Below, one piece after another: positions 4,637-30,684 of a stretch of DNA of 64,000 nt. The first letter of the stretch is position 1, and each line of letters opens with the position of its first letter. Origin of the DNA: Sphagnum compactum (taxonomy: Eukaryota); contig OZ234494.1 in NCBI GenBank assembly GCA_965153455.1, forward strand, positions 434,001-498,000, given 5' to 3'. The notes beneath the pieces were generated by a model. The model did no database searches. It saw only the letters and a list, made by a program, of their open reading frames with translations, and was not told the DNA's origin. The translations under genes were made by a program, and so were the position numbers.

Positions 4637-7600
4637 ATGGAGTACCGCGAGATGAATGGCGGGAGATTCTATTACGACAATTCCGTGGCAATCCCAATGC
4701 CCGGGTTGTTATATCCCGGACAGCAGCAGCAGCCCTCTTTCCAGTTCAATCTCAAGAAGGAGACGGGGCGAGGAAACAACAAGCTGTATCTGGGACAGCA
4801 GCAACAGGAGCAGATGTTCCAGTTCCATGAAGCTGCTGGAGCGCCGGCTGCATCTGCAGGCGTCAGCGGGTTGATGGAGAAGAAGGAAAAGAAGAACAGC
4901 AGCAGCGCCTTCGCTACTAGAGGTTTCGACGCTGCTGCAGCAACAGCATTAGCAGCAGCTGGAGACGACAACAGCGCCTGCGCAAGACTCACGTGGTCAG
5001 ACTTGTGGGTGTCCGTCACCAATGCTAAGGGCGAGGATCAGACAGTGCTCCATGGATTGTCGGGATACGCAGAGCCTGGCGGCATGCTTGCGATCATGGG
5101 TCCTTCAGGCTCCGGCAAGTCAACTCTTCTCGACTCTCTCGCAGGTAAGAAGAAAGAAGAAGAAGAAGAAGAAGCAAGTCTTGCTGCTGAATGGTGTTGT
5201 TCATGAGGTGCCTGAGGCCGCGATCGAGCTGCAGAACCCAACAACACTTACAGTCTTGCAGGCAGTTTTGCATCACAAACTAAGACTTGCTTGTGGTGAT
5301 TGCAGGCAGATTGGCGAAGAATGCCACCCTCACAGGCGAGATTCTCGTGAATGGGAAGAAGAAAGGCCTCTCCTATGGTGCAGCTGTAAGAAGAACAAGA
5401 GTTCTCCATTTCCCGCATTGATCTTCTCTAGACTTGCTTGCAGCAGAATTGTGTGTGTGTGTGTGAGAGGTTCGTCGCTGTTGCTGTTGTTGCAGAGAGA
5501 TGATGATGATCCGCGATGGGATGTTTGCAGGCATACGTGACACAAGCGGATGACTTGATAGGAACTTTGACGGTGCGAGAGACGGTGTACTACTCTGCAA
5601 ATCTGCGGTTACCAGACGGAATGTCGCAGGCGGAGAGGAAGGCCATCGTCGACAGAACCATGAGCGACATGGGTCTCCAAGACTGTGCCGACACGCCCAT
5701 CGGCAACTGGCATCTGCGAGGTTTGAGTGGAGGCGAGAAGCGAAGAGTGAGCATTGCCCTTGAGATTCTCACTCGTCCTCGCATGCTTTTCTTGGACGAA
5801 CCCACCAGCGGCCTCGACAGGTACGAGAGCTTCGCTGAGGAGAAGAAGATCGAGAAAACAGTAGTAGTGTTCTGGAAGAAGGAAATCTGAAGAAGAGGAA
5901 GAAGAAGCTTGCAAGAGCTTTGCTCGTCTTTCTTGGGGTTGTTTGTTTGTTTGTTTATTTGCTCATGGGGGTTTAAGACATGGGGTTTGTGGGCTTGGTG
6001 GTGTAGTGCCTCGGCATTCTTTGTGATGACCACATTGAGGAACTTGTCCAGAGATGGTCGCACTGTGATTGCTTCCATTCATCAACCCAGCAGTGAAGTT
6101 TTTGAGCTTTTCGATAACCTCTTCTTGCTCTCTGGTGGTCACACCATCTTCTTCGGTGAAGCTGCTGTAGCTCATGAGGTAGGAGGGTGCACACATGCAC
6201 ATACACATCCCTAGCCTCTCTCTCTCTCTCTCTCTCTCTCTACCCATGTACCTCATGTTCCCCTTGCTGTAAGAGACACTTTCTTTGCAGCAGCAACAAG
6301 AGACGCTGTCTTTGCTTCAGCAAGAAGTTTCTGAGATTTCTTTTTAGCAACAAGAGAATTCTTTGCAGCAAGAAGAGGCATTCTTTGTTGCAGCTGCAAA
6401 AGAATTTGTTTGCAGCAGCAAGAGACGTTGTTTGCAGCAGCAAGAGACTTTGTTTACAGCAGCAAGAAATTTTGTTTGCAGCAACAAGAGAATTCTTTGC
6501 AGCAACAAGAAGAGACTTTCTTTGCAACAGCAAGAGATTTCTGAGATTTCTTTGCAGCAGCAAGAGACTTTGTTTGCAGCAGCAAGAGACTTTGTTTACA
6601 GCAGCAAGAAATTTTGTTTGCAGCAACAAGAGAATTCTTTGCAGCAACAAGAGACTTTCTTTGCAACAGCAAGAGATTTCTGGGATTTCTTTGCAGCAGC
6701 AAGAGACGTTCTTTGCAGCAGCAAGAGAACACTTTGCAGTAGCAAGAGACTTTCTGAGATTTCTGGGATTTTTTTTTTGCTTCGCAGTAGTAAGAGGATG
6801 ATTTTTCCCTTTCTTATGGTTTTCTTTTTATGATTTCTGTGTGTCTGTGTGTCTCCTTCTTTTGGTTGCAGCATTTTGCAGCTTCAGGCTTCCCGTGTCC
6901 AAAGCTAAGGAATCCTGCAGACCATTTTCTTCGAGCAGTGAACTCAGACTTCGATCGAGTCAAGATGGGTGTACAAGGGTCCTTCAAGATCAGAGTAAGA
7001 AGAAATGATTTTAAATTTCACGCCCGCATCATCGGAGCAGATTGTTTGAAGATTGTTTTCCTTCTTACTCCACCCACCTCTACTCCTTCTATGTTTTTTT
7101 TATAACACATTTTTTGGGATTCCAACAAAATTGCTGCAGGAAATTGAAGCACAGAGGGTTGATCCTCTAGAGAAGATGATGGCAAGCCAAGTGGTGAAAA
7201 TCTTGACTGATTCATACCTCAATTCACACTACTATCTCCTGGCGCTTTCCCGGATGCATGAAATCAATAAAATTGTAAGTGTTGAAATCTAAGAAATTTT
7301 CAATCTCTCTCTTTTTTTTTGGGGTCATACTCGTGATCATCTTCTTATCTAGGTGTTGGGGGTTTTGTTTAGAATTCTTTCTTTGGTAAAGACTCTAAAA
7401 CCCTAAACCCTAAACTTCCTTCTTTGTAAGGTTAAGAACCTTTTATATCTCAAAAAAATTTAAAAAAACTGGGTTTGTGGGCTTTTTTCTTTGGGTTCAG
7501 GAAGGTGCAATCTTGGAGTCTAGTGGTAGCCAAGCGAGCTTCATTCGCCAATGTTTCATCCTTACACGCAGATCATATGTGAATATGTCCCGAGATATTG

Positions 7601-9233
7601 GTTACTATTGGCTACGCCTTGTAATCTATATTATGCTGACCATTTGTATTGGCACAATTTACTTCAAAGTTGGTCATGAATTCTCAGCAATTGCAGTGGG
7701 TGTTTCTTCCTCACAACTATCTTTTACATAATCTTTTATATGCTACTTCATCAAGCTTTATATGCTAATTTGGTTGAGACCCTTGAAAATGAACCTCAAC
7801 TCTTATCCCTATTAAAACCCTAAATCTAACAATAATTTTATTTATTATTATTTTTGTGATTGAATGTAGCTGCTGAACTGTGAAGTGCTCACTCTCACAT
7901 GTTGAGACTTTCCTGTTAGAACATGGATTTTGTTGTAGCTCAGAATTTGCATTTCTTGGGTTTTTTGCAGGGACGAGCTGGGTGCATGTCTTATGTTGCA
8001 GGTTTTCTGACATTCATGTCAATTGGTGGTTTTCCATCTTTTGTTGAGGATATGAAGGTACATGGTTTCAGACCCATTTGCAAAAACTCCCAAAGATTAC
8101 ATTTTGTTTGGCTTACTTCCAAAACCCCACTCACACAAGATTTTAGCTGACAATAACAGGCGATGGTGGTTTTCAATTCTGCTTGTTTTGCAGGTATTTA
8201 GTCGGGAGAGGTTGAATGGGCACTACGGAGTGGCGGCGTTTGTCATTGGGAATTCTCTCTCATCCCTCCCGTTTTTGTTCCTGATATCCGTTGTATCAGG
8301 TTCAATTGTTTACTTCATGGTGCAATTGCATCCGGGTTGGGACCACTTTGTTTACTTTGTGCTCATGCTCTTTGCATGCGTCGCTTGTGTGGAGAGCCTT
8401 ATGATGGCAGTCGCCAGTGTTGTTCCTAACTTTCTCATGGGCATCATCACTGGCGCGGGTATTCAGGTATATAATTTGTTTTTTTGTATCAGTGTTGTTG
8501 GTATTAGTTCTCTGCAATAGAATATCAATCAAAGAGATGGTGATAGTGTGAGTATTTTGCCCAAGAAATTGGCAGTGAAATTGATAACACAAGCGATTAG
8601 CAGCGTCATGGATCAAATGCCAGTGAATTTGATTTTCCAAAGTGATGATTGAGGAGGGAGCTGCATCATCAAGTGGATGATCAATGAATGAAAATTATGC
8701 CTAACCCTAATTTGCTCTTTGCTTCTGTGGAGCAGGGCATTTTTTTACTGGTGGCTGGATTCTTCCGATTACCCAAAGATCTACCAAAGGCAGTTTGGCG
8801 CTACCCGATGTCTTACATAGGCTTCCATATGTATGCACTTCAGGGGATGTACCAGAATGATTTTCTGGGAGTGACATTCGACAACTTTGTCCTCAATGGC
8901 ATACCGACGGGGCCTCCCATCACGGGCGAATACGTAGTAAAACAGGTGTATGAAATCGATACGAGACGGAGCCGGTGGGAAGATTTAGCGGTCGTATTGG
9001 GTATGGTTATTGGCTATCGGCTCATCTTCTTCCTCACAATCAAGTTCAGCGAAGATGTCGGCCCCGTTCTTCGTGTTCTGCTCACCCGACTACTACGACT
9101 AATCACTTCACTGCTCGTCACACACAAGGCGGGGGTCGCACATAATACCATCACACCTGTTTCGCTCGAACCTTCACCAGTTCATGAAGCCGTCCCGCTC
9201 CGCTACTCAATGGGGAAAAACTTTGGCCACTAA
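4637..9233 (+). CDS. ABCG (WBC/White-type) half-size ABC transporter, ABCG11-like; 10 exons: 4637-5144, 5306-5385, 5531-5820, 6007-6178, 6872-6994, 7140-7274, 7501-7695, 7971-8057, 8194-8466, 8736-9233
   Basis: Walker [11 protein letters not shown]-loop AYVTQ, signature [11 protein letters not shown], Walker [13 protein letters not shown]-loop SIHQPS, NPADHFL, then an ABC2-type membrane domain ([25 protein letters not shown]). The NBD-TMD order is typical of ABCG. All introns are GT-AG with consistent phases. The ABCG11/cuticular-lipid subgroup is inferred from recalled similarity. Confidence 0.95.
6270..6770. repeat. Degenerate ~21-bp minisatellite (TTTGCAGCAGCAAGAGAC-like) in ABCG intron 4
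   Basis: Many tandem variants of tttgcagcagcaagagac/tttgcagcaacaagagaa between the intron donor at 6179 and the acceptor at 6871. Confidence 0.9.
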
Positions 9234-13896: not shown

Positions 13897-14332
13897 CTAG
13901 TGTGGCCTGTGCCGTTGGCCCAAGTGTTACCACGTCCTCAACTGATTCTTTTCCTTCCAAAAACCTGGTTTTTGGGAATTTATATGAATTTTCAGTGGCA
14001 GAATTCACTTAAAAATCAATATCTCCCACATTCTGAATCCAAATCTTACCAAGTAAATTCCATCAAATCCTGCTCATCAAGATCTTTCCAACAACACCAA
14101 AGGCACATTCCAATTCCCCCGAGATTTTCAGATATGATTTAAAATAATTTTCAGTGAAGAAATCATTCAATATTCAAGAACTTTTGCACTGCAAGTCCAA
14201 ACGTCATGGAACCAAACCCATGCACCCCTTGTCGTCGAGAACTTTCCAAAGACACCAAGAACACGATCTGAAGCATACCAGTTCAGTGGATCTAGTAACT
14301 ACAAAACAAAACATACTACCTTCCTTCATAGA
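13897..14332 (-). mobile_element. Short (436 bp) non-autonomous Helitron-like element
   Basis: On the minus strand it starts A|TCTATGAAGG at 14332 and ends with an imperfect GC-rich hairpin (TGGGCCAACGGCACA) followed by CTAG|T at 13897. This gives 5'-TC, 3'-CTAG and an AT insertion site with no TSD. Confidence 0.65.
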
Positions 14333-15697
14333 TGCATGGTAGTGCAAAGCTCAAGCACATAAATAGTGTGTAGTTGGCCCAAGTGTAAACTCATTACCAA
14401 ACTCATTTCATTTTCTAAAAGCATTTTTTGTTTGGACCATAAGCACAATGAGGGGCATTGCGATTTGAGAGATTTCAAGATGACAAATAAACTATTTTCT
14501 TTTGGGGAGGGTGACAAAAGGATGGATATATATATATATATATATAGTTCCCAATGTGCTCCCACCAAGCTCCCTCAAGCTCTCACTGTGTTCCCAACAT
14601 TTTTTCCCAAAGTTCTCAAGAAATCTGATTTCAGAAAAGTAACCATTTTTTGCTGAAAAAACACACATATATCAAAGCGTGTCATCTGAATGAAATTTCA
14701 TTCTATAACCATTTTTTAGGTGGTGCATTTTGAAACTTTAACGATGTTGAATTAAGAATGATTTTCACAATTATTTTCATATTATGATAGCCCAAAACAT
14801 AAAGTCACTTGATGAAGATTACACCTTTTGATTTTATTGTACATGATGCTCCCCAACATTTCTTCAATAGCACCTCACTTTGTCCCATTTGTACTTTATA
14901 TACTTTATATGTTTTTTAAGGGGGTTCATTCCTTCTGCACAACTCTTATGTGAAAACTAAAATACAAAGAAATCTTGAGAATATATCATTTATTTAACAT
15001 CTGCTGAAGGGAATCAAAGGGTGATGTATAAGTAAATTTTGAGAATATCCTTTGAATGAAATTGCTAGCAGAGTGTTGCTAAAATAAGAGTTTTGTAACC
15101 ATAGCACAGGGGCAAAGCTTGCAACCTGTCTGTTGATTACTTAATTAACTTTGAAGATTTCATGTGCAAAATTAAAATATTCCTGAATATTCCAAAAGAG
15201 TATATCAACAGGAGTAGCAAACTAGCACAACATGTTGCATCAAACCTCAAAACATGTATCAGGTGCAGGAACTACGTACATACCTCTTCCTCGTCCCTTG
15301 GATATCAAACATTCTCCAGGATGCTTTGCATTTAAACCTGTTCAAACTCTGCAATCAAAGTAAAATTAACTTATGACTTTAAGTAAGACTCACTTCTCCT
15401 GCACAAGAAAATCCAGACCTATGTACATGGATCTATCTTACCTCACAGCAAGTCAGAATTATGAACCCGAAAACCACTTTCAACAATTTTGTTGTTTGGA
15501 AGAACAGTTACTGCTATGGAGCCTCTCAGGACATGAGTTTGTGAGTGTTTCAGGCAGCTGACATTGCCATAGTTACCACATCATGATACTGACTCCGGTG
15601 TACAAAGTGATGAAGATTTTGTGTCCATTGGTGGAAGCTTCCAAGTGCACCCATCAAGTTGACAACACTTTACAAAATTGCATATGGCAGGAACTTG

Positions 15698-18600
15698 TCA
15701 GAGGTGAATCCGGAGCATCTTAGTAACCCATGTTCCACAGTTGGGCTGGCCACAAATGTCGACTGACCTTGTATTCTTGCAATCCAAACATGGTCCCAGA
15801 TGCCCTGTATGCAATATTGTGCCAGTTCATATCTATGAGGTTTCAGAGAAAACTCCACATAACAGTTTGAAGACAACCTTTGTGTCAGTTCCAGCAATAG
15901 CACAATAGCACAACAAACACAGCAAGAATTCGTGCAGTCATAACCTTGTGGGCATCACAAAGTATCAGACAATAACCTTCATCATGAATGGAAGTGACAA
16001 GCTGTCATTCCTCCAGATGGGGATCATCAGTCTGCAATTTTGGGTGAATACAATTACATTGTAATCTGCTAAAATTTTGAAACTATACAAAAGTCTGCAT
16101 CATGAGTTTCTGTTGCATTTCCAGAAGCAATGGGAAACACATGATTATGGCTAGCACTTAATGTTGTGCCAGTTCAGAAGTTTAGCTACTTCCTTCATCA
16201 AAGATGGAAGAATTTTATGATTATATTACAAGGGCCAGGGCTGAGAAGGAGTGAACTACAAATAGATATTATGGTCTCATTCCAGCAATCCGGTAGGGAT
16301 AAGGCTTAGAGAAATCAACCATAAAACTGATGACACTAGCAAACAAAACAAGCTGACTTGCAAACACAAAGCTACTGACCTTACATGCAACAAGATAGAG
16401 ATGGTGAGACTTACGGCAATCAAGAATCAGATGATCTGGAGGCCTTGCATAGCAGTAGCAACACAAATGTGCATGTTTCTGGAGGTTTGGCTCTGTCTGC
16501 TTGATGGTGACACTGTCTGTGAGAATTGCACTAAAATGAACCTCAACCTTTGATGAAGCTGAGAAGGCAGATGAACTTGTAGCCAATTCCAATCCTGGAA
16601 CTGTCACATCAGAAATAGGTGTGGCAACCTGTGGAGAAAATGAGATGAACATGTCAATTGGGCAAGAAACTGGCAAATGCTGTGTAAAGGTTAGGCAGTA
16701 CTGGAAAATGTTAAGATATTTTCTTGAAAATCTATATCTTCGTAAGTACTGACAACCTCTTTCATATTTGCAATTTAAGTCAACATGAAGAGAATTGAGA
16801 GATGACTCAACAAATAGAAAAAAAAACCAAGGAGAGGTTTCAACAGTGACAGTCACCCACATATTCTACCTAACAGCCATTTATGGTCATGACCAGCTAC
16901 CGTATTATCCCCACTAACTTAATCAGCTCCTGGCAGTGGTTGGAGGTCAATGTCATACATGAACCAACATACTGAGTTTCAATATCAAGTATCAGTAACA
17001 GGAAGACACATCCATGATGCCAGTTAGCTCAATAGTATCTAAATAAGAAATAGAAACCAAAAAGAAAGAGGAACACAAAAAGAGAAAGGGGAAAAAACAT
17101 CAAAGAGTGAGGACTGAGAAACAGCATTTCAAGTGGGTGTCAAGTTGTATGTGATCTTCAAACATGCTGAAATGAAACTCATCAGCACCTATTTTCCAAG
17201 AGAAAACTTCCCAGAGGATTTAGAGAAGTCACATACCTCATAAAAAGATGGGAAGAGCAGAGATGCAGTTGGTACACCAGAGGTTGAGGAGACCTGCATT
17301 TCTATGGCTTCTTGAGTTCTAATCAAAGACTCAGCTGACCCTGTTGATAGTCCCAGAAAACACTCCTCGGAGATGGAGACTTCTCGAGATGCAAAACTTC
17401 GTTCCTTGTTGCTCATTTCAACCTCAAGCTGTTGCTTCTCTCGATCTTGCTCAAAAGCAAGAGGGTTGTATCCAAGCTTGGGGCGAGGTAGTAGAAATTG
17501 CGATACCGATTCAGTAACTGGAGTTGCATGCTGAAGAATAGTGTCCATCATCAAAGGGTTATACACAGATGAAGATTGGAATTGACGTTCTGATGGATTG
17601 GGTTGAACTGGCTCAAAGGACATATCATGTGCTTTCTCCTGCTGGTCTGCAACAATTGCCTGCGGTTTTCCCAACACAAAATTAAGATCTCTGAAACCCT
17701 TCAAGCAGGAAAATTCTCTTTTCAGACACTGCATGAGTGCATGAATGACCAATTCTCAGAGGCTAATGATGGCAATCACATGCAAGCACTCTACAACAGC
17801 AGTAACAAATTCCTACACATGTTTATGACAGCTTCACTGCTCCCATCTAGTCTAATTACTCCAAAATTGTGACCAAGTGGTATAATTCCATAATTTCTGG
17901 CTGAAAGAGGTCAGGTTCTTCATGCTCAGTACATACACAAAGCACCAGTTCAAATTGTTACGGCTGAAAAATACATTTACTTGTCCAGGCTTAAGTAGAA
18001 TAAAGATAATACATCAAAAGCATACCCCACATGTTCTCCCAAGCAATAAATTCCCCTTACCTTTGGAAACAAATGTGGAAACAGTTCCATAGGCGAAAGC
18101 TGTGGTGTTCCTTTGGCTGGTGGTGGTGCAGTGTCAAGAACTCTGCTGTCAGGCTCAAGTCCTAATTCTGATCCAACTGTGCTTGCTTTGGGTGAGCACA
18201 GCTCCTCTCCTTGAAATTTGCCAGCAAATGAGATACAGAGAGGGCTGGGGGGTGCTGCATTATCTAATGAACTTGTGGTTAAATTGAGACTAGCTGGAGG
18301 AGATACCCTACCCTCTGAGGTAAGATTCAGCAGTTCTGTTTCAGATATGTCAGGATATGGACCAGAATCAATGCTGCAAGTTTGGGCCATGTTTTTCAAC
18401 CTGAAAATTGACAAAACCTGTTTCATCTGCACAAAAAGTCTAAGAGTTATGACTAGGGTTGCATCCACAATTTCACCCTCCAGAATAGAGGGCACACAGA
18501 GCTATCTGTGTCCTTGCCTAAAAGGGGTAGTCCAGATCTCATCACAAATAAACCTGGTGGACATTCACCTTTGATACCAGTGGAATAATCTGAACTCATG

Positions 18601-21600
18601 CCAAGTTTCAGCACAGAAACTATCCAAGGCAAAAATCACAAACCAATGCACCTTGCAGTGGAGGATGAAAACAAGCATTAATTCAGGCCCCTCATGTTTG
18701 CAATCCTTGTTGGTGACTGCAACAAACTCTCTAGGAGTTGTTGGTCATAAAAATTGACCAATATCTCTGAGCTACAGTATATGCATTCAGCAGTGATGAA
18801 CCATTGAAAAACCCAAAGCCTAGGAACTCTGGGAACTCACTTTGTATACACCCTAGCCTCTATAATACAAAAATATCCCTTCAAAGGTTGCAAAGCAGAT
18901 GGGAATTTTGAAGCTAGAGAGTGAATTTCCTTTCAATCCAGAAAAAGAAATATACAGTAATCTAAAATTTATGTCCAAGCCTTCAGACCCTTTTGCTAGA
19001 TGATACGTAGGGAGGGTAGATGGTGCTACAAGACCACTGGAGAATATCAAGACTTACATACCTGTGAGAAAGAAAGGTACAGAGACCTGCCAGACATCTG
19101 AGTGGCACCAGGAAGCACAGACTCAAGCTCTGCACCTGTGATTGATACAGGATAATCATGCAAGGTGTCAAACCCAACCAAAGGAGCATAAACCACCATT
19201 GACTCCATCATGGGCCCCACCATCTGCATCATGGACCCTAGGTTGTCATGAACTTATCTGAATGGCTTCTCTTTCAACTTGCATAGCCTTGATTCAGTCA
19301 AGGAGAAGCTTGAGAGAAGCAAAACTAATGAGATCGGTTCACACTAATGATTCAGCACTGGTCAGTACCAGCCCTATGTTGGCTCAGCTTTCAACATAGC
19401 AATGAGGCAATGCCATCTCTCTGCTCTACAGATAGAACCACCAAGTGTCCATCCCTGTTGGATATAAACAAGGAATCCAGTTTCAGTGACACCAATAGTC
19501 TCCTGTAACAACACCCTAGAGGAATGAGAATAATGGAAGTTTCACATACCGGCTTCATACCATATGAAGAAGATTGGTAAACTCCGTATGTCTGTTGTGT
19601 CAAGACGTTGTAAAGAAAAAGAATGCATGTGCCAGGAGCTATATGAGGAACTGCCAACAGATGCTTTGTTGACACACAGAAACGGCTCATCTGCTTGTAC
19701 ATTGCTAGTGTCTCATCGTTGCAGCCTATCACCTGATTCCACACTCACAAACAGTATACATCCAAAATTAGAAGTGTGCACACTTTGCCAGTCCAGTCCG
19801 TGAGTTCTCTTCTATTCTTCCTCATCAAGACAACTTGCCTGTTTGCCACACCAATGGAAGAGACGCTGCTGAAAGGGCATTGAGAACTTACTTGGCCAAA
19901 AAAAGAACTTGGTGTCTCATTCTCTTGAACAGGGGAAACAGAACATGATAAGCTTGGTGTGCCATAATCAAGGGGAGGAAAAACAGAAGATGACAGGCTA
20001 GTTAGCCTGCATTCAATACTTGGGGGTCTCCAGTTGGGTTCACTCATACTGTTGCTGTAGTATGCATCAGGATTGTTGGTTTTGGGAAAAGATAACTGGT
20101 GAAAGTCAGGGGATATCAAATATTCATAGTCATGAACAGTGGGATACTGTGGTATTCTGTTCTCATCAGTCCCATCGGTAGCAAGGTTAAAACTTTTCAT
20201 ACCTACACGGGATGTTCCAGACTCATGAGAAGAGGTGAGGCTACTTGGGGCAATGGAGGAATTGTCAACACCTCTTGAGTCAATGAGAAGAGAGACAGGA
20301 GGTATTGCATCAGATGCTGCAGCTAAATCCATATCAGATAGCTCAGAAGACATTGACCCTACTACAAGGGTCTCTGAAGTAACAACAGATGACTCTTCTG
20401 AAGATCTGAGGCAATGTGCTGAGTATTCTCCAACCACAAATGGCCTTGCAGTAACACGCAATGGTGTCCCAGAACTGTGAATGAAAGTTGACTTTAAGAC
20501 CTCCACATTCTGTGTCAGCTGGGCACTAGATGAATCTGAACCATGTGGCATTGTCACAATGGGTGACATGGAGACAGGTTCAAGCATTGGGACTGGCTGA
20601 AAATTTGTACCATGTGATTCCAGTGAGATGTGATGTGGGAGAGTGGGAGCCAAAGCAGTTGACGTTGTCAATGAGTTAAATGTTGGAGTTGGATCAGCCA
20701 GTGCTCCTGATTCTCGTGATTCTGTTGGTGTGCATGTGAGTGTTGAAGCATGTTCCGTAGTTATGGCAGTTTCTACTGTTGGTGCAGGTAGTGAAGACCC
20801 AGGCTGCACACTTCCATGAGTATGAGCAGGTTCATCAGGTTGTAGCGTGCCCCCTGCCAAGGCAAAAGAGCAATTTACCCCAAGGTCATCTGCAATTAGC
20901 CATATGTGCAAGGAAATTCAAGTACATCTAAAAAATGTTCACTCTTATGCATAATACTGGTAACAGCAAACTGAGAATTTCTGGACTGGAAAAATGTCAC
21001 TAACAGAAATAACTAAAACTCGTCCATAAAATGCTGATAGAAAAGCACTGCATGACTCACCCTCAAGTTCATTGGCATGTAAGTATTCATCAGGCACATT
21101 CGAAAATAAATCCGGTTGAAGTCGCTGCACACATGCAAATATTCTCATCTAACCCTGAGAATTGAGGTTTGAGAGGCCCACTTGCCTCCTGAGAGATTGA
21201 ACAATTCTAAAGCAGTCCAGCAATGGATTGGAAAGAGTTTCAAGTCTTGTGGTCATAAAATCAAGTGCAAAAAGAAAATATTAGTGGAACTTTGAAGGAA
21301 GATAGTTACACTTGATGCCATCAAACTAGGAATTGATGTCTGATGTAGGCCATGAAGTCTTAGTTGCAAAAGCAATTGATATACATGGATTTCTTGCCTA
21401 CAAAAGCAGGATACTCATGGAGAAAAATACAGAACCTTGCAGAAAAGTTCACTAACCACCCACCTCCTTAAGAAAGTAAGTACACTTCAGCTTCATCCCC
21501 CGTACAGAAGTATCATTGTGAAGACCTCTTGCTGTCACAGCTTCTTCCCAAGATCTGCCACTTCCAAAGGTGAAACTCAGCTTACTGCATTTATTCATTT

Positions 21601-24600
21601 GGGCTCTCCTATGACAGCCCTCAAAATGACTTGAGGTTGGATACATTAGAGTACAAGTTACATGTGGCTTAAACCTGGCCCTTCAGTCACGACTCAAATC
21701 ATGATCAGTCGAATGAAAATACAATATGTAGCATACAGAATCTGCAACTCTCACTGTTTACATGTGATTGGTTTGGAAGAATCTGCAGCAGAAAGTCATT
21801 GCATTTGAAACAGAAGCCCATGAAAGCCATAAATCAAAATGGGCAAAAAGAAACTACCCCATGGAAACTGTAGCTATGTGGTAAAAAGGAAACATATCCA
21901 ACTGAACCATTGAGCCTCCTTGAGCAAAGAGGTCTCTCATTTCTGCATAGTCTGCTTCAGGATGCATGTTTTCAATGAGCAAGTGGGGTGATCTGACAAT
22001 TTCCTGCAGAATGTATCAAGGACATGAGTGTGCAAGAATAACACAAGCACTTATGGCACAACCCTAATAAACAACCACACAAGCTGCCAGATTCATAGTA
22101 CATAGCACAGTAGCAAACCCTTCTGCTATGTCCAGGGTAAAGGAGCAAATCAGCAAGTTTAACTATAACGTTAACTTGCAACCAAGAATTTATCCATGAT
22201 TCATACTTGTCCATTGTAGGGAGCACTTTCAATATTTTGATATACTAAAACACACTGTCTCCCATATACATACACAATACTGAAAGTGCCACCCAACTCT
22301 GGATGCCATACTGAAACTTCATCTTCACAACACTATAAGACTCTGAGACAACTCTGTTGAAAGTTTAAAAACATGAGCATCTATCACCACCCAAGAAGAG
22401 GTTTGCTGTTCAGGCATTTGGTTCAAATAGCATAACAAACTTCCTCTACTGAGCTCCATTGAATGTGAATGTACCTGGTGCTCTGGGTCCACTAGTAAAG
22501 ACTGTGCCTTCAACACAGCAAGTGGTGAAAATGCGCTTGATTTTGGGTTTGTCCTAACAGAGCTCTCACCCACGGAAAGAGGCTGGTCACAAACACAATG
22601 CAGTAAGTACCTAAGAACAGTGACACATCGAAAATAGGAAATATGCATGTTGTGGAGCTGATTGACTGGAGATTAAAGCATAGTAATAATGCTTATAAAG
22701 AAGCAAAGACAGGCAGAATGTAACTCACTGGAAATTGAATTGCTGATGGCTCAGAGATAAGTGGTGACAACACTTGATCACTCCAGTAATCATGTGTCAT
22801 CCCAAAGAAACCTGGGTCAGAGTCCTCCTCCTGTTCTTCAGCTGAAGGGAGAGTGAAACCATCCCGAAACAAATGAACCGTCTTCCCCTTTGACTTTGAT
22901 TTCTTCATCTGTGATAACATCATGCATGCAAATATGTCAACATGGCCACAACACTCCTTCTCATCCTACCAAAGAGAATTGTCTCCAAGTCCTAACCTAC
23001 AGACCTGTTTCAAGCCATTGCCCTACTGTGGACACTGGTGACTGGGCATTCTTTCGATGCAGAAACTTTGAATTAGCCTTTTGCTGCAACTTTACAAGTT
23101 CCATCTTCCAATTCCTCCTTTAACAAGTCTCTTGATGGTAGAATGTCAAGGATGACCTATTAACATGACCTTGCTCATGTTGACTCCATTCGTTCCAGCT
23201 TACAATCCTGTGCCCTACTTCTAGAATTATTTTGGCATCCCCTTAAATTCCACCTGCCTGTCCATTCCTTTTGTACTTCACCACTCTTCTATAACTCTTT
23301 CTCCTTTGATGACTCACCCCACTATAAAGGAAGCTGGGGTCACAAGATTTTGTTATCAACTTGAAGCTAAAAGCAACTCCCTCAAACAAGACAACATGAC
23401 CAAGCTATTGCATGAAGCACAGACCTTAAGTGTTTTTTTTGGCTGCTTTGACACTGCCATAACTTCATTCTTTTTCTTGTAGACCTGAAGGGGCCCTTCT
23501 GGTACAACTGCTAACATAGCAGATCCTTCCCCAGCTGCACTAGGCTCCTTGTCCTGTCAAACATATATCTCCAATAGTATAGATCTGGAGACTGGCTACA
23601 GGGAAGTTGCAGTTATACATCTGAACAACTGGTGCTAGTGCTGAGGACCCACTTGCTATTATGAGCCACTATGTTTTACAGCTGGCACTTTACAGCAAGC
23701 AGGACCCCACATGGCTGGTACTCATTGCTAATCATATGGTTCTGGGGTAGTCACCTCCTGAGAAGAGCATGGGCAAGAAGCAGAGAAATTCAATAGACAC
23801 ACACAGAGACATGATGAAATGAGGAAGTTGCATAAAGAAATTTGCACGCAGGGTACCTTTTCAAGGAAGATGTCACAAATAGGTGCTACATTGAAGGTGG
23901 ATGCATTTGAGAGTGTGGCAGACTCAATACACCCTACCCTTTCAAATGACTTGGATGATGAGGAATCCACTCTCAAGATCTTTGCTTGCTCAGCAATTTC
24001 AGCTGAGGTTGATGTAGGTAGGAGATCACAAATAGGTGCTACATTAGAGGTGGATGCATTTGACAGTGTTGCAGGCTCAATACCACCTCTCCTTTCAAAA
24101 GACTCAGATGATGAGGGATGCACTATCAAGATCTGGGATTGCTCAGCAATTTCAGCTGAGGTAGATCTAGCTTCTTTTGATTTGAGCTTTGCCCTTTTCA
24201 CCTGGATCACAGATTGAGGATTTCATGAGCAGATTGTAGACAACAGAGAGACACTGTAGGTTATTCAATGCACTACCAATGCATGCACAAGCACATGTTG
24301 AGTTAGAGGAGTCCTGAGATAAGACCTTCAAAACCTCCAATCATTACCCACATAATGTGCTTATGAACACTCCAGAATCAGCTGTTTTCAGTCACTAGCC
24401 CTGCACTTCATGCCAGCCTTGGCATACACTTCTCCTTGAAGCAGCCAGCTAGGAAACGTATCATTGTGAAAATATAGATGAGCACAAGCAGCAGAATGCT
24501 AGCATCTAATCAACCTTGAAACAAGGAGATTGCAGAAGACAGTGTAGGAGAGGAGGAACTGTGGGCACAGCATTTTGAAAGAACAGCTTATAGTCAGATG

Positions 24601-27379
24601 AGTAGAGAAAATACCAGTTTTTTGCTGTGTGAAGAAGGCAGATCTCTATGTATAGCAGGCTTTTTCTCCTTTTTCACCTCCTCTACAAGCTCATGTATAA
24701 CCTATCGTTTAAAACAACACATGTCATATAGACAACCATAAAACCAACTAACTTTTTTCTGAATAGGCAGACATGAAGCAAACCCAAAGTTTTGCACCTT
24801 TGGTAAAACATCACTGTGAGATACCTCTCCAATCAGCCTCTCCAATCAATCACTAAATTTCAGACAGATCAAATTCACCCCAGTTGAAGAGCCATGAGCC
24901 ATACCTGCTTGCTTTCTCGTGTTTGAACTTTGATAAGCTTGCCTGGGCAATCTACAACCACATAAACAGCCAAAGTTGTTTTAGTTCTCCACACAGAACT
25001 CCTACAAGACACAGAACAACTGCAGATATGAAGATGAACCACATACTATGCAGAACCTTGATTGCTGCCTTCTCCATGATGGCATACTCAAAGACAGTAG
25101 AGAGCTGGAATCTAAGGAAGCAGTCAAAACCAGCATTCCACCCAAGCATAGGCATGGGAAATGTGTGTTGTAAGCTTGTGAAACTCATATACAGAAAACT
25201 GCACCAATGACCATTCAGAAAAGTGCACAGTTCCAAAAATGCCCAAGTAACAAAAAAATCAGCTAACCTGGAGTCATGCATATGGCACCACGGACCATCT
25301 TCCAGTCAGTATTGTTATCCCGAAAGTTCTTCTCAAATTCCCGCCAGCATGCCTGAAAGTGAAATAACACACAGCAACCCTCTGAACAGCTCAACTCTAT
25401 CCGCCTGCTGGATTCTTTAATACTTCGTGATCCATTGGAGCAGCGATCAGCAGTTAAGCCTCTACATAACCCTATCTCTTCATCAAATTCTTCAAGTCCA
25501 GCTCCAGACCCATGCCTTGCAAGAGATCGCAACTCTGCTTCCCGCTCCACCCTCTTATTCTCAACAAGCTCCTGGGCAAGCTCTGGTCCAAGTTTTTCAA
25601 ATGTGCTTCCAGCATCCAAATTCCCTCTACCTTTCCTCGGTTTCTCTTGATCTTCCAGCTCTTCAGTTTTGAGCTTTACATCATTCTGCATCTTCTGCTC
25701 CTGCTTCCACCATACATTGCCTCGCCTCTGCAAAATGGCAATTAGTTCCACAATGACCATCTAAGCGATCCCAGACAGGTAAAACCTTTGAAAATGCCAG
25801 AATGCTCAATCTTATATTTTTCATTCATAAATTGATAGACGATAATGCAAATTGTACTTCAAAAGACTACTGTACCTGCTCGTCTACAGGTTTTGGAGCT
25901 TTATATATTATTCTGTAGAGCAGATGTCTTGCAGGTGAGCATTTGTACTTGGACCTGAATGATTCAAAAGCCTGTCTCCAAGCTTCACAATCTCCTCGAC
26001 CTTCTCCCACCTCAAGACTAACTGTTCTCTCACCTTTGGACATACCAACAATTTTCTGTTTCTCTAAAACACGGTCTTTGTCTGCAACCTCCCGCATGCA
26101 AGCAGAGGAACTGGTTGGAAATCCTTCAGCTCCAGAACCTGGAGGTTCTTTCTGTCTCCTGGTTGCAATAGCACTCCTATTGACAAGAGAAAATGAGACC
26201 TACAGGTTCCCCATGCAGCAACCATTGAAAATAGATTTTCCAATTGACACAATTTCAGAGTCTGCGAGCAAGCTCAGTTTGTTTGTTTGTTTATGTCAAG
26301 TACAGACAGATCAGCCAATTAAAGTTTTGGGAGTTCTTGCACATGAACATCAAGAATAGAGTACCCTTAAAGGACCAGGAAAAACCAGCTCAAGCCCATC
26401 AGAAATGCTGGAAAGTTTGTTGGAAGTTTGGAAAAAAGAGGAAGAGCAAGTGCAGAATTTTAAATCTGTTGTCCATAGTGCCTCAGCATCTCATGACAAG
26501 TGTGATGCTACCTGAGGATTTAGGGTTTAGGCAAGCAGCAGTGACAATACATGCTCAAGATCCCTTCTCCTATGTCCAAAGCTCTGAGAAGGTGAAAGGG
26601 GATTCGCACCAATCCAAAGCCTTCTTATTCAAAAGCCCCCTCTTCAACGCTGCACATACATTGTGGAACTCGGTTGCTGATTTGTACTTCCTGGAGCATT
26701 TGTGAGCCTCGGAACCATAAGAATCGGCAAACATGCGTTCCTTCTGGTACTCGCTCTCCAACTCCTCAAGCTCCGGATCGGATCCAGGACAATCGCTCCA
26801 ACCGGAGGAGCCAGACTCCACACTGCTCCTCTCAAAGCCGTCGGACAAATCATGATCACGTTCCTTCTGAACGACGCACGATTCAGCAGTCTCAGCTTTA
26901 GACGACGACAGAATTTTCGCCAATTTGGAACTCTCCAAACGATTGACTGCAACCCTAGGAGTTGTACCGGCAGTAATACTCCGAGACCAATTCTTCGCAG
27001 CCTTAGATCGATTGGCAGATTCAGCAACAACAACATCATCATCCTCATCGTAATCACTGTCTCCGCTATCCGACGACTCCACCTCATGCTCCCGCCACAG
27101 CGAGGAGCAGTCCCGTGACTTGAAGTGCGACAAGAAACTGGATCTTATGGATTCACGACTAGTACTACTAGTACCGGGAGACGAAGACATGACAATGAGC
27201 TCTCCGCCCGACGGATTCCCGGGCCGCGTCCATCGACTGATAGCCGTAGTGCGCGACGATCCGTCTTCCTGCGGTATCCTGATGACGGCGTGCACCACGC
27301 GCGGCATGTCGGCTTCCCGCTGCCTCTCTCCTCTTCTTCTGTCTGAACCACCATCAGCCTGGTGAAGAATGTCGTCCAT
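15698..27379 (-). CDS. ~1750-aa multidomain putative RNA-binding RING E3 ligase (TTC3/DZIP3-like Cys/His domain + RRM + DCD + C3HC4 RING); 19 exons: 27379-26610, 26176-25876, 25727-25268, 24951-24905, 24701-24615, 24201-23857, 23553-23425, 22908-22729, 22582-22475, 22003-21858, 21554-21464, 21124-21061, 20853-19784, 19732-19550, 19223-19062, 18426-18061, 17659-17237, 16628-16415, 15804-15698
   Basis: The hand-built model joins 19 exons by GT-AG introns into one stop-free 5253-nt frame. Motifs are completed across junctions: CMTP|DCPG; RRM LLIENM..DLFAQGG..ATVSMG|SWEEAVTARGLHN..VRGMKLKCTYF; DCD GK|VIGCNDET..IAPGTCILFLYNVLTQQTYGVYQSSSYG; RING CCYC..LILDC|RHLGPCLDC..CGQPNC. Exon boundaries in the low-complexity parts are less certain. 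Confidence 0.82.
23870..24165 (-). repeat. Two-copy 153-bp (51-aa) in-frame tandem duplication within exon 6 of the RING/DCD gene
   Basis: TSAEIAEQ...SFER..IE.ATLSNAST.NVAPICD occurs twice; tcacaaataggtgctaca is found at 23873 and 24026. Confidence 0.9.
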
Positions 27380-27407
27380 GTGGATATCGCCGATTGTTGT
27401 CGCCAGC

Positions 27408-27530
27408 GCTGCTAGTTCCTATTCTCCGCCTGCTGATGATACCGTAGCTGCTAGTTCCTATTCTCCGCCTGCTGATGATACCGTAGCTGCTAGTTCTCTC
27501 TCACATGCTGCCGCTAGTTCCTATTCTCCA
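27408..27530. repeat. 39-bp tandem repeat (~3 copies) just upstream of the RING/DCD start codon
   Basis: gctgctagttcctattctccgcctgctgatgataccgta is repeated twice, followed by partial copies. Confidence 0.85.
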
Positions 27531-27727
27531 CTCTGCTGCCGATCATGCCGCCGCGTTTGCGACGAGACCTGGCGAAGCTCGCATTCATGAAAACGACAGC
27601 GAGCAATTGGAGAAGCGAGCGAAGTACGTCCGCCACGGAGCTTTGCCTTTCTCTCTCGCCCTCTCTCTCGCTCTCGTGGCTCTGCCCGTTTTCTTTGGTC
27701 TGCCCGAAGGGAAGAGACCGAAGTGGC

Positions 27728-28100
27728 GATCATCCATAGGAAGATTTAGCCGAATTTGGCGATCATCCATTTTGTGATGTACCCAAAGTGGGGATCATCC
27801 ATAGGAAGATTTAGCCGAATTTGGCGATCATCCATTTTGTGATGTACCCAAAGTGGGGATCATCCATAGGAAGATTTAGCCGAATTTGGCGATCATCCAT
27901 TTTGTGCTGTTCCCAAGGGGGGGATCATCCATAGGAAGATTTAGCTGAATTTGGTGATCATCCATGTTGTGTTGTACCCAAAGGGGCATGGTCATCCGTA
28001 GGAAGATTTAGCTGAATTTGGGGATCATCCATTTTTTGAGATGTAGCCAAATTGGCAATCATCCTAGGAAGATTTAGCCAAATTTGGCTACAAGCTGAAT
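27728..28100. repeat. 65-bp tandem array (~5.5 copies) at the end of a dispersed repeat; a related copy lies at about 59117-59230
   Basis: gatcatccataggaagatttagccgaatttggcgatcatccattttgtgatgtacccaaagtggg starts at 27728, 27793, 27858 and 27923, then decays. The adjacent atgtagcc...ggcaatcatcct...gccaaat.tggcta..aatatgaaa motif recurs near 59117. Confidence 0.9.
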
Positions 28101-30684
28101 ATGAAAGTAAACTTTTAAAAAAACATCTTCCTATATTTTGGCTACCTACTTGAACCATGTATAGAAATATTGGAATTTTTTTCTTACATTTTGGTCAAAT
28201 TTCTGGCCATTGAAGATCTGAAAAAAAACACTTGATTTGATCACTTTTAATTTTTAATTTATATTTTTGGCTGCATTTTGCCTTTTTTTTGTTTTGATAT
28301 ATATAGGTATTTCCTATTATGTTCACACCAATTTTTTTCTTTTATGGAAAACCATAGGCTTGATTTTTTTTAAAATAAAGACCGACTTCTCATGATGTTG
28401 CATGGGATGCATTTGTATTTATCTTAAAAGATGCAGGATTTCATTTTACATGAATAAAACCCTAATGATGTGGTATTGTCCATGTAGGCATTATCATTCA
28501 AAGTTATGCCCATGTAATTAAATTTGCATGTGGTAAAATCTTTCAAATATGAAGATTCCTATATCAACCATCGCACATGTGTTATTAATCCAAATATAAT
28601 AATTACCATTTTTTCATAGACACATTTCTATCGCTCTTTACTTGGGAATCAATTGAACTAATTACAACTAGTGGGTACCTGTGACCTTTGGACACTATGA
28701 AGTCCTCCGGTTTCTTTAAACCAAGAGAGACACACACAAAGGCGCAAAGCAGCTATTCTTTATTTTATTTTATTTATTTTTTGTGACGAAAATTCGTTGA
28801 AAAGTCCCCCATGAAAACATAGATGGTGAAGCGAGCATTTTGGAAAATTTTCAAAAAAAAAAAAAAATCGTCACATTTTGAAGAGGGGAAAAAAAAGAGT
28901 TTCCTGCATGATCACTTTATCTAAAATCCATTACATGTTCCAGCGCCAAGTGCGGCTCATTTCGGGACCTCATTTCTGTCATCTGAGGGGTTGCAGAATC
29001 GACCTCGCAAAGACTGTTAACAGGTCGAAATGGACAGGTTCAGACAGACACACTGACAAACCAAGTGAATTAATATATAGGATTTAGAATTGTCCAAAGA
29101 ACGACTTATGAAACCTAAAGTTGTTCTATCTAACCCTAATCCAAAATGAATCATTATTAGTAAGTATAGAGTGAAATTTTTTTTGTTGTCTTGAACAATT
29201 TTTGTGTTTTGATTTTTTCTTAAATCCACTTCTAATACATTCACTTTCATCAATTTCACTATGTTTGACTCCCATATGCACACAACCCATGAGTAAAAAA
29301 TAAACTCTCACGATAAAATCTTTTGAAAACCATTGCAAACCTTCCAACACAACACCCACAAATTATTGCACTTGACACAAAAAAAATAAAAAATGAATGT
29401 ACAAAACCTTATTGTTTTTGTAGCAAGCATATATTTTCACTATATTTCTTTTTTTTTTGTTATTACACACAAATGTTATGAGAGCGCACAACAAGAACAC
29501 AAACCCTAAAACCATAAAAAAAAGATCAACATGTTTTCCTTCTCTCACATGAAACTACAAACACAAAAAATGTCAAGCTCTATGTCTCTCTTTCTCTTTC
29601 CAACAACATAAAAAGTTCCAAACATACTATACCTACTCTCACATAAAGAGCTTAAGCACTAAACATAGGAAGAATCAAACCTTGCGAAAACTTCATTCTA
29701 ATGCAATTAGTCCATTGAACGATTTTCCTTGATGTTCTATGGCTATGGTCTTAAAAGTTTGGATCTTTGTTTGTGTGATCTTTGTGTTTGTATTCACATT
29801 ATATCTACCCTTTCCCTTCACTTTGTTGCTTGAAAATCATCACCTCTCAATATTCTTCGACTTTGCAGCTTGATTTTTTCTTTTGTTGCATTCACAACCA
29901 CCTCATTTTCAACACTTGATTTAGACCTATTATTATGGGACCTTGGTTGACATCTCAAAAAAGGAATACTGTGATTAATTATGGATACATGAAATTTTGT
30001 TTGCTTTCATAAGTTGCCTCCACAACGAAATACCCAACAATTATTTTTATTGTTTGGTTCATTGGTTGGTGAACTTGGGAAAACAATAGTGATGATTCCA
30101 AAAAAATGGTTTTTGAATCATGCATTAGAGTCATTGAATTTTTGAATAGAATTGGATGACTACTGTAAGAACAATGTGTTCATTGCAAACAATGGCTTCT
30201 TATAAATGTTTTGTCACAAACTTGAAATTCTTTCTTACAAATCTTTTATGATGAAAAATTTGGTAATCTTACACACTGGCATCCAATGCTTTTTCATTTG
30301 AGGGGCTGGAGTGAACCAGCAGCCACCAATGGACCAGTTGAGGATGAGCCCGTTGAAGCCATTTTGCGGATGACCAAAAATCCCATCCTCCCTTCCCGCA
30401 TGTTTTTTTTTTTCCACCTCTTCTCTACCCCAAAATTTTCCCCCCTCCTACCTACCACCTTCCTCCCCCTTCCTACCTACCACCTACCACCCCCTCCCCC
30501 CCTCACTCCATCGCCAGAACTCTAGAGCCGTCAAGCGAGAGTGAGCTTGGAGCTGGAGCTGGAGCTATTGGAGCCGGGGAGTTGTGGCTGGAGCTGGAGC
30601 GAAACCCACGCGGGACCTAGGTAAGCATCTTTTCTTTTTTCTTGTTTGTTTGTTTTGTTTGTTTTTCTTTGCGTTGTAAGGAAA

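Follow-up and report, generated by a model that had tools for sequence, protein, structure and literature searches.

Several proteins join an RNA-binding type of fold and a RING finger in one chain, among them CNOT4 (RING and RRM), MEX3 (KH and RING), MKRN and Roquin; the RING of MEX3 is C-terminal and of the RING-HC type, and that of CNOT4 is N-terminal. Such RNA-binding ubiquitin ligases form a recognized class, which in the literature found, including the accessible part of PMC5707401, is centred on animals and yeast. Here, a gene on the minus strand of a 64,000-nucleotide (nt) stretch of the peat moss Sphagnum compactum (contig OZ234494.1, positions 434,001 to 498,000) is described; the whole stretch is called the window, and all positions refer to it. 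The predicted protein carries a TTC3/DZIP3-like zinc module, an RRM-like domain, a divergent DCD domain and a C-terminal RING finger. By this domain content, it would functionally belong to the RNA-binding ubiquitin ligases, with which it shares the presence of an RNA-binding-type fold and a RING in the same chain. Its readers are different, namely a DCD and a non-canonical RRM, and it has no KH, CCCH or ROQ domain.

With the animal proteins DZIP3 (hRUL138) and TTC3 the window protein shares a TTC3/DZIP3-domain match above cut-off; all are long proteins in which a C-terminal RING follows at a great distance downstream of this match. The RING of DZIP3 is reportedly a RING-H2, as the title of Kreft and Nassal from 2003 is said to state, and to our knowledge neither RRM nor DCD is part of the DZIP3/TTC3 architecture. 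In contrast to DZIP3, the fifth RING ligand of the window protein is Cys (C-x-H-x3-C), not His as in RING-H2, which makes it a RING-HC (C3HC4). The domain match covers the C-terminal half of the model only (positions 54-113 of 116 in every match, hence not the full model), and no tetratricopeptide repeat (TPR) was found in the window protein. Because of the half domain, the RING-HC and the missing TPR, the protein is not a DZIP3/TTC3 orthologue, the comparison being one with the descriptions of these proteins rather than a direct alignment. In the accessible parts of the respective publications, DZIP3 figures as a RING E3 ligase that binds RNA (PMC13717357) and as an H2A ubiquitin ligase (PMC4645096).

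The plant DCD proteins (NRP/B2, central-DCD, ParB-DCD and DCD-Kelch) share the Dev_Cell_Death match and the LFL motif with the window protein. In the available part of Tenhaken 2005 (PMC1182354), FGLP, LFL, PAQV and PLxE are given as the signature motifs of the DCD, the four subgroups described are all without RING, RRM and TTC3/DZIP3 domains, and 'RING' occurs 0 times in the text. The window protein fits none of the four subgroups, and FGLP, PAQV and PLxE are degenerate in it. Bell et al. 2020 (PMC7641849), in the part available, argue that the DCD is a PUA-like modified-base reader acting on RNA in eukaryotes, infer DNA reading for prokaryotic DCD domains and describe recurring links of the DCD to ubiquitin-related zinc fingers.

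A preliminary description of the locus, made from the sequence, knew of no described protein combining the four modules, and the literature search found none either. It returned no relevant paper on the architecture, on DZIP3/TTC3 in streptophytes or on the locus tags concerned; the supplements of the Sphagnum, Chara and Mesotaenium genome papers, which may list the genes, lay outside this search.

Gene structure and transcription

The coding region extends on the minus strand from 27379 to 15698 and consists of 19 exons and 18 introns, with GT..AG borders at 18 of 18 introns. The spliced coding sequence (CDS) of 5037 nt is a single frame of 1678 amino acids (AA) without an in-frame stop. Both ends and the exon count had been given correctly in the preliminary description; its claim of one open frame stood as well, but the length of ~1750 AA stated there was ~4% too long. 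The start codon (ATG, 27379-27377) is the first in-frame ATG past the stop at 27419-27421 and agrees with the orthologues P0002 and P0003, and the stop codon is located at 15700-15698.

All four motifs are whole only across splice junctions, as had been proposed: the zinc module is split over exons 3/4, the RRM over exons 10/11, the DCD over exons 13-16 and the RING over exons 18/19. The 25 raw minus-strand open reading frames (ORFs) gave a partial TTC3_DZIP3 match (20.9 bits), an RRM_1 match (13.6 bits) and a DCD match (30.5 bits), and no RING match was obtained in any of the 25. The raw ORFs thus contain fragments of modules only, which fits the view that splicing completes each motif.

For RNA evidence, four public runs, comprising moss or plant metatranscriptomes and a polyA RNA-seq run, were compared with positions 14000-29500. 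X1 and X2 are RNA contigs, X23 consists of stranded polyA reads and X18 is a DNA-like run. Of the X23 reads, 749 of 905 were ≥ 99% identical to this region. Their depth was confined to one strand in every bin from 15034 to 27958 and dropped off beyond; this strand is the one expected of minus-strand RNA in usual libraries.

Splice joints were available as a list of 15 of 59, and intron counts based on joints are therefore lower bounds. Among the joints listed, CT..AC joints, which correspond to GT..AG on the minus strand, were present in X1/X2 contigs for at least 11 of the 18 introns (1, 2, 3, 8, 11, 12, 13, 14, 15, 17 and 18). Ten of these 11 were also found in X23 reads, with 5-24 reads each; the exception is intron 2, whose joint (25699->25875) occurred in X1/X2 contigs only and in 0 X23 reads. 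Of the other four joints listed, one is a 31-nt indel within intron 9, and three are associated with repeats upstream of the gene.

The seven introns without a listed joint (4, 5, 6, 7, 9, 10 and 16) are supported indirectly, namely by loose contig ends, by environmental protein fragments in spliced form and by the annotation of Sphagnum orthologues. Intron 16 has loose ends at 17661 and 18060 as well as protein fragments gapless over the junction. Introns 4 and 5 are crossed by fragments of the orthologue cluster, intron 5 having a loose end at 24202 in addition, and introns 7, 9 and 10 by fragments of the paralogue cluster, intron 9 with a further loose end at 22474. Support for intron 6 comes from annotated orthologues only. 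Altogether, the environmental fragments are gapless over junctions 1-5 and 12-18 in the orthologue cluster and over junctions 4, 5, 7, 9, 10, 11, 12 and 13 in the paralogue cluster. At junctions 3 and 4, which complete the zinc module, P0071, P0073 and P0084 are gapless, and P0071 is identical to the window model at 12 of 12 residues.

No one RNA contig covers the entire gene. Joints link exons 1-4, 8-9 and 11-16, and loose ends together with joints link exons 16-19. An annotation artefact, in which chance GT-AG pairs made one frame of a decaying pseudogene or of at least two adjacent genes, would draw on this lack of a spanning contig, on the 7 of 18 introns not among the joints listed (15 of 59) and on the homologous parts in Chara, which the annotation assigns to separate proteins, CBR_g2731 and CBR_g2729. 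It is largely refuted and very improbable, given continuous RNA depth on one strand, the chain of exons just described with protein fragments crossing 15 of the 18 junctions, independent annotations of the same full-length protein in six Sphagnum species, a single Mesotaenium model holding zinc module, RRM and DCD, and 5037 nt without an in-frame stop. The junction check by RNA that had been suggested for the locus yielded one transcript unit with RNA over the whole span and at least 11 of 18 introns as joints. The locus is a single expressed nuclear peat-moss gene.

Modules of the protein

The four modules occur in the order first described, zinc module, RRM, DCD and RING. At profile level this description stood in part: TTC3/DZIP3 and DCD pass their Pfam cut-offs, the former with the C-terminal half of the model only, whereas RRM and RING fail in Pfam and were recognized via family profiles, both of which match solved structures.

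The RING at the C-terminus has the pattern C-x2-C-x11-C-x-H-x3-C-x2-C-x8-C-x4-C, and the chain ends exactly 12 residues after it. Pattern and tail spacing are identical in 22 sequences (the window and 21 relatives), which represent five distinct variants and include Chara, and all eight zinc ligands (C-C-C-H-C-C-C-C, cross-brace) are invariant from Sphagnum to Chara. A three-sequence RING profile was compared with solved structures, and 11 of 11 matches with E ≤ 1 were RING E3 ligases, XIAP being the best (E 3e-4), followed by MGRN1, cIAP1/2 and BRE1A. By pattern and profile the domain is best assigned to the RING-HC fingers of the IAP/MGRN1 (zf-C3HC4_3) kind. These RINGs are its only sequence relatives in solved structures, and in XIAP and cIAP, too, the RING is the last part of the chain but for a short tail; the window protein differs from them in the last ligand pair, C-x4-C, which is a signature of the family, and in a zf-C3HC4_3 score under the cut-off. 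Three fragments (P0029, P0030 and P0042) read through the intron at the place of window intron 18.

The zinc module was identified with Pfam TTC3_DZIP3_dom (PF19179, gathering cut-off 26.9 bits). The cut-off was passed in 12 of 12 spliced relatives holding the region (27.2-36.6 bits), Mesotaenium included; the window exon-3 ORF by itself, i.e. without exon 4, reached 20.9 bits. The spacing C-x7-C-x17-C-x3-C-x4-H-x2-3-C-x18-24-C-x4-C was found in 10 of 10 sequences tested, and the seven Cys and one His are invariant in the family alignment A4, again with Mesotaenium. The resulting Cys7His module probably binds two zinc ions.

Two further searches with this region gave matches below significance. 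In Pfam at E ≤ 10, the sole extra match of the zinc-module region of P0084 and P0071 was a weak zf_PCFS4 (E 0.03-0.06), and in the ESM Atlas Headcase N-terminal clusters were obtained at 0.85 and 0.78, under the 0.9 level. The whole protein had no usable match in the ESM Atlas.

For the RRM-like domain, a family profile (A2) was built from four sequences, i.e. two Sphagnum paralogues, Mesotaenium and Chara. Compared with the PDB sequences, it gave 73 matches with E ≤ 1, of which 13 had E ≤ 1e-3, and the alignment spans the whole domain of ~75 residues. The latter matches include cS22 (1.4e-9), PTB1/2 (6e-8), RBM14 (1e-7), PABP, RBM30, GW182 and Y14/RBM8A. Since the family profile matches solved RRMs, the assignment of the putative domain to the RRM fold is sound.

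The DCD was determined with Pfam Dev_Cell_Death (PF10539, gathering cut-off 27.8 bits), which was at or above cut-off in 10 of 15 scans; the other five gave 13.2-27.5 bits. The window exon-14 ORF passes the cut-off with 30.5 bits, and for the DCD of the Sphagnum paralogue the match extends over the full model (positions 2-124 of 126) at 37.3 bits. The fold was modelled with AlphaFold2 (AF2) on P0102, a fragment which equals an S. magellanicum isoform and is identical to the window at 138 of 140 residues in the domain, and the DCD reached a predicted local distance difference test score (pLDDT) of about 70-80 (residues 30-167). Foldseek returned 50 PDB matches with E ≤ 1e-3 for this model, the top ones being the YTH domains of Mmi1 and YTHDF2 and the archaeal EVE protein PH1033. 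VIA-align, which is independent of Foldseek, gave 15 chains with Z ≥ 8, among them EVE 2ar1 (11.0), YTHDC2 (10.8), Mmi1 (10.7) and THYN1 (9.1); YTH, EVE and ASCH domains are all represented at Z 8-11.

According to the model, the divergent DCD is a YTH/EVE-like PUA barrel. The likeness to the YTH/EVE readers (Mmi1, YTHDF/DC, CPSF30-YTH and THYN1; Z 8-11, TM 0.5-0.66 over ~120-135 residues) is one of predicted fold only, as identity is 8-15% and the window protein has no YTH or EVE match in Pfam. These fold matches agree with the PUA-like assignment of the DCD by Bell, Wolf and Koonin (PMC7641849, part of the text).

Conservation and relatives

The four modules account for 409 of the 1678 residues, about a quarter, and the remaining ~76% are linkers rich in Ser, Pro, Thr and Glu; the protein is large and mostly disordered. 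Identity between the window protein and the paralogue is 79/71/79/84% in the zinc module, RRM, DCD and RING, respectively, and 54-71% in the linkers, so that the modules stand out in the alignment as islands of conservation. The linker motifs ELFPHLFPK and YNPLAF are common to Chara (ELFPHLFPK in P0034).

Six species, namely S. magellanicum, S. fallax, S. jensenii, S. troendelagicum, S. tenellum and S. balticum, have annotated orthologues of 1671-1714 AA, which are named 'hypothetical', 'unnamed' or 'DCD domain-containing' proteins. The sequence is thus not new to the databases. The annotated Sphagnum genes show a protein identity to the window of 92-96%, with 95.5% for S. magellanicum CY35_02G016300 and 92% for the S. 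jensenii proteins. Two annotated S. magellanicum isoforms are without an intact RING: P0080 lacks the RING exons, and P0082 retains intron 18, which breaks the RING.

A Sphagnum paralogue (S. fallax BDL97_08G110600 and others, 1745-1747 AA) is ~61% identical. It has one extra exon exactly at the position of window intron 17 (16629-17236), which encodes a weakly SH3-like segment (SH3_3 ~17 bits, under cut-off). No remnant of this exon was found in window intron 17 with tblastn at E ≤ 10, and the orthologues are without the segment, too. An SH3-like segment at this position was also observed in Chara CBR_g2729, the SH3_3 scores across all holders being 14.7-17.8 bits, under cut-off.

The range of the family was searched exhaustively with phmmer, using residues 480-1679 of the orthologue P0003 against 1.84 billion representatives at E ≤ 1e-3. 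Only 37 proteins were matched. Of these, 19 were looked up, and the other 18 are all ≥ 76% identical to the Sphagnum query. Among the matches looked up, the only named relatives outside Sphagnum are Mesotaenium endlicherianum ME000058S08624 and two proteins of Chara braunii. The Mesotaenium protein (1318 AA) has zinc module, RRM and DCD, and its annotated model ends without a RING. In Chara, CBR_g2731 comprises RRM and DCD, and CBR_g2729 the SH3-like segment and the RING; the locus tags are two apart on one scaffold, and the two may be one gene split by annotation. Other homologue searches, which were word-indexed, gave Sphagnum proteins only, and in an alignment-based search 3 Sphagnum proteins scored among the best 8000 candidates.

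No canonical plant DCD protein was matched at E ≤ 1e-3 in the phmmer search. The DCD of the window is therefore very divergent, and this also limits what the search says about absence elsewhere. Taken from these matches, the proteins would form a small family in streptophyte algae (Chara, Mesotaenium) and Sphagnum, with an apparent absence from other land plants in the one phmmer search made. The earlier suggestion of a lineage-specific protein holds insofar as the family is restricted (37 matches); being present in Chara and Mesotaenium, it is not specific to mosses.

Putative function and alternatives

Judging from the domains, we lean towards a nucleic-acid-guided RING ubiquitin ligase that binds RNA; both the ligase and the RNA functions are inferred from them. 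In this mechanism, docking on nucleic acid would be the task of the DCD barrel, perhaps assisted by RRM and zinc module. The target would probably be RNA or a ribonucleoprotein (RNP), possibly via a modified base. The RING would then recruit E2~ubiquitin, so that other proteins on the target, or the ligase itself, are marked, and the RING-less S. magellanicum isoforms could act as non-catalytic competitors.

Several observations in each module weigh against this interpretation. The Pfam model zf-C3HC4_3 (PF13920, gathering cut-off 27 bits) remained under cut-off in 13 of 13 relatives scanned (13.6-23.6 bits), the last pair of RING ligands is C-x4-C and not C-x2-C, and the RING part of the P0102 AF2 model is poor (pLDDT 40-53). 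A predicted complex of two RING+tail copies with 4 Zn (score 0.18, mark 0.32) speaks neither for nor against dimerisation.

A non-catalytic RNP scaffold would be in line with the first two of these points. The RING-like finger would then be structural or protein-binding, and the protein a large disordered adaptor for RNA and proteins, e.g. within granules or, as for other DCD proteins, in the signalling of stress and cell death. The isoforms P0080 and P0082, which lack or break the RING, and the ~76% of residues in Ser/Pro/Thr-rich linkers are consistent with such a role, as is what the available parts of PMC1182354 and PMC10388829 say of NRP and other plant DCD proteins, namely a link to stress and cell death with no known enzymatic activity. 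We nevertheless regard a scaffold as a doubtful possibility: RING and tail form the most conserved module (53 of 63 residues between paralogues, 24 of 63 in Chara), the eight ligands are invariant and the only relatives of the RING in solved structures are active E3 RINGs.

For the proposed ligase, the remaining objections concern nucleic-acid binding. RRM_1 (PF00076, gathering cut-off 20.7 bits) was under cut-off in every scan with 13.6-15.0 bits (window exon-10 ORF 13.6; P0004 14.9; Chara 13.9; P0066 15.0) and was not listed for 9 other full-length relatives. The canonical aromatic positions (RNP2 position 2; RNP1 positions 3 and 5) are Leu, Ile and Thr in the profile alignment (LLIEN.., ..IATVSM), where cS22 has Y/F/F, and they are non-aromatic in Mesotaenium and Chara, too. 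Loss of the three aromatics is typical of RRMs which bind proteins or bind RNA in an atypical manner. RRMs of the PTB type bind RNA without those aromatics, and RRMs of the GW182 and Y14 types are used differently. With the three stacking aromatics missing, the RRM may or may not bind RNA.

The zinc-module AF2 model (P0084, 215 AA, alignment of 9 rows) had a mean pLDDT of 41.9 and was unusable, and the full family profile matched no solved structure among the PDB sequences in this region. In the DCD, three of the four signature motifs are degenerate; FGLP reads RFCVS (FSLP in Chara, FCLP in Mesotaenium), PAQV reads APLVGF and PLxE reads GAELE, and LFL alone is intact (LFLYN). Modified DNA is bound by PUA-like readers as well, two of which, THYN1 and McrB-N, appear in the list of fold matches, and the target of the barrel could therefore be DNA.

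The latter point leads to a chromatin- or DNA-directed reader-ligase, in which the DCD would read a modified DNA base (e.g. 5mC) like EVE/THYN1 and SRA, and the RING would ubiquitinate chromatin proteins in analogy to UHRF1/VIM and DZIP3. In UHRF1 and plant VIM-ORTHRUS (SRA and RING), the same logic is found: a RING E3 is fused to a PUA-like reader of modified bases, the SRA, which reads 5mC in DNA. The window protein differs from them in that it has no PHD, Tudor or UBL domain and its barrel is of another family. The SRA is called PUA-like in the available part of PMC7641849.

The fold matches of the DCD include THYN1 on 5mC DNA (Z 9.1), McrB N-domains on m5C DNA (Z 7.0) and a modification-dependent endonuclease (Z 8.6), and Lys-rich stretches in exons 5-8 could be nuclear-localisation signals. 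The accessible descriptions of prokaryotic DCD as DNA readers (Bell et al., PMC7641849) and of DZIP3 as an H2A ligase (PMC4645096) point in the same direction. The best fold matches are, however, RNA-binding YTH domains, an RRM fold is present in the same chain, and RNA is argued to be the target of eukaryotic DCD fusions (Bell et al., PMC7641849, available part). No PHD, Tudor, AT-hook or other histone- or DNA-binding domain was obtained in any Pfam scan. A chromatin-directed function is thus considered unlikely.

As a more specific and speculative version of the RNA-binding ligase, the protein might be an ancestral streptophyte coupler of the epitranscriptome to ubiquitin. The DCD would read a modified RNA base of the m5C/m6A class together with the PTB-like RRM and the zinc module, and the RING would ubiquitinate proteins on the RNA. 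The gene would have originated before land plants, have been kept and duplicated in Sphagnum, and have been lost, or have diverged too far to be recognized, in most other land plants.

Features of the locus and its surroundings

The coordinates of exons, module parts and untranslated regions (UTRs) are listed in Table 1.

Table 1. Exons, module parts and UTRs of the gene in window coordinates
Feature	Position	Strand	Evidence
Coding span, 19 exons, 5037-nt CDS, 1678 AA	15698..27379	-	all GT-AG; stranded polyA RNA throughout
5' UTR, end approximate	27380..27550	-	X23 depth 18.3 (bin 26925-27441) to 2.1 (bin 27442-27958)
Exon 1, AA 1-257, Ser/acidic-rich N-terminus	26610..27379	-	intron 1 (26177-26609) joint: X2 and 6 X23 reads
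Exon 2, AA 257-357	25876..26176	-	intron 2 (25701-25875) joint: X1/X2 only; crossed by P0071, P0083
Exon 3, AA 358-502	25268..25700	-	intron 3 (24952-25267) joint: X1, X2, 10 X23 reads
Most of Cys7His zinc module, AA 436-502	25268-25466	-	in exon 3; raw ORF TTC3_DZIP3 20.9 bits
Exon 4, AA 502-517, last zinc-module Cys (TP/DC across the junction) and end of Pfam TTC3_DZIP3 match	24905..24951	-	single GT donor/AG acceptor in search ranges
Exon 5, AA 518-546, Lys/Glu-rich	24615..24701	-	P0071, P0073 cross junction 5
Exon 6, AA 547-634, ~1.5 copies of ~50-AA repeat	23938..24201	-	X1 loose end 24202; donor is best orthologue fit
Exon 7, AA 635-677	23425..23553	-	acceptor by homology only; paralogue fragments P0062/P0069 cross junction 7
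Exon 8, AA 678-737, Lys-rich stretch	22729..22908	-	intron 8 (22583-22728) joint: X1, X2, 7 X23 reads
Exon 9, AA 738-773	22475..22582	-	X1/X2 loose end 22474
Exon 10, AA 774-822, RRM-like first half (RNP2-like LLIENM, RNP1-like IATVSM)	21858..22003	-	raw ORF RRM_1 13.6 bits; paralogue fragments cross junctions 9, 10
Exon 11, AA 822-852, RRM-like second half	21464..21554	-	intron 11 (21125-21463) joint: X1, X2, 21 X23 reads
Exon 12, AA 853-874	21061..21124	-	intron 12 (20854-21060) joint: X1, X2, 14 X23 reads
Exon 13, AA 874-1194, Ser/Pro/Thr-rich linker; final 4 codons open DCD	19892..20853	-	intron 13 (19733-19891) joint: X1, X2, 6 X23 reads
Exon 14, AA 1195-1255, DCD N-terminal half (LFLYN motif)	19550..19732	-	raw ORF Dev_Cell_Death 30.5 bits; intron 14 (19224-19549) joint: X1, 8 X23 reads
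Exon 15, AA 1256-1309, DCD C-terminal half	19062..19223	-	intron 15 (18427-19061) joint: X1, X2, 22 X23 reads
Exon 16, AA 1310-1431, DCD end (18391-18426), then linker with ELFPHLFPK	18061..18426	-	loose end 18060; P0099, P0102, P0074 cross junction 16
Exon 17, AA 1432-1572, linker with conserved YNPLAF	17237..17659	-	loose end 17661; intron 17 (16629-17236) joint: X1, X2, 22 X23 reads
Exon 18, AA 1573-1644, first RING half C-x2-C-x11-C (then R) at 16415-16463	16415..16628	-	intron 18 (15805-16414) joint: X1, X2, 24 X23 reads
Exon 19, second RING half H-x3-C-x2-C-x8-C-x4-C, 12-AA tail and stop	15698..15804	-	ligand pattern; RING profile vs XIAP E 3e-4
3' UTR to AATAAA at 14994	14994..15697	-	X23 depth 17-18x (bins 15034-16067) to 0.35 (bin 14517-15033)

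Within the gene, an alternative in-frame GT donor at 23857 would add 27 AA to exon 6 (23857-23937) and complete the second copy of the ~50-AA repeat; the same choice of +27 AA separates the annotated S. magellanicum isoforms P0081 and P0072. RNA contigs of X1/X2 are unspliced through 23425-24202 and 23425-24642. The X23 loose end at 23466 was considered as an alternative acceptor and rejected, as it is a 3-mismatch variant of the window sequence. In intron 9, a 31-nt stretch (22229-22259, ends TC..TC) is missing from X1, X2 and X18 contigs, which is an indel polymorphism and not splicing. A segment of ~40 nt inside intron 18 (16095-16136) is matched by many X23 reads that then diverge beyond either end of it (12-46 reads per loose end); other transcripts, which are expressed more strongly, contain this short sequence as well.

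In the 5' UTR, a perfect 39-bp tandem duplication is located at 27408-27485, and the X1/X2 contigs omit 47 nt (27446->27494, with 9 other letters in X2); the duplication is probably a copy-number variant between strains. Just upstream of the 5' end of the gene, 27730-28105 contains a ~65-bp tandem repeat in 6 copies (60-100% identity). Very high X18 depth and many loose ends were observed here, which indicate a dispersed repeat family. Adjoining the 3' end, 14000-14516 has an X18 word depth of ~62,000, compared with ~30 over the gene, and X23 reads on both strands; the segment is either a repeat of high copy number or resembles organelle DNA or rDNA. Rfam gave 0 matches for the whole window, including 16095-16136 and 14000-14516.

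The neighbouring genes are unrelated to the RING gene. On the plus strand, ORFs in 4634-8520 with matches to ABC_tran (34.5 bits) and ABC2_membrane (60.2 bits) suggest an ABCG-type transporter, and a PLATZ transcription-factor ORF (27.2 bits) was found on the minus strand at 46281-47147.

Significance

DCD domains, for which no biochemical activity is known, have been connected with stress, cell death and development in plants. Reading of modified bases is predicted for them in the available part of PMC7641849. A predicted DCD barrel which is joined to a RING and an RRM fold, and kept from streptophyte algae to peat moss, makes this reader prediction directly testable. If the protein indeed couples the epitranscriptome to ubiquitin, a DCD protein would for the first time have a defined biochemical output, and the SRA-RING logic would have, in the plant lineage, a counterpart that acts on RNA. 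The gene adds a plant-lineage architecture to the putative members of the RNA-binding E3 class, and the TTC3/DZIP3 zinc module is recorded outside animals. For Sphagnum, an ecologically weighty peatland genus, it is a candidate marker of gene retention.

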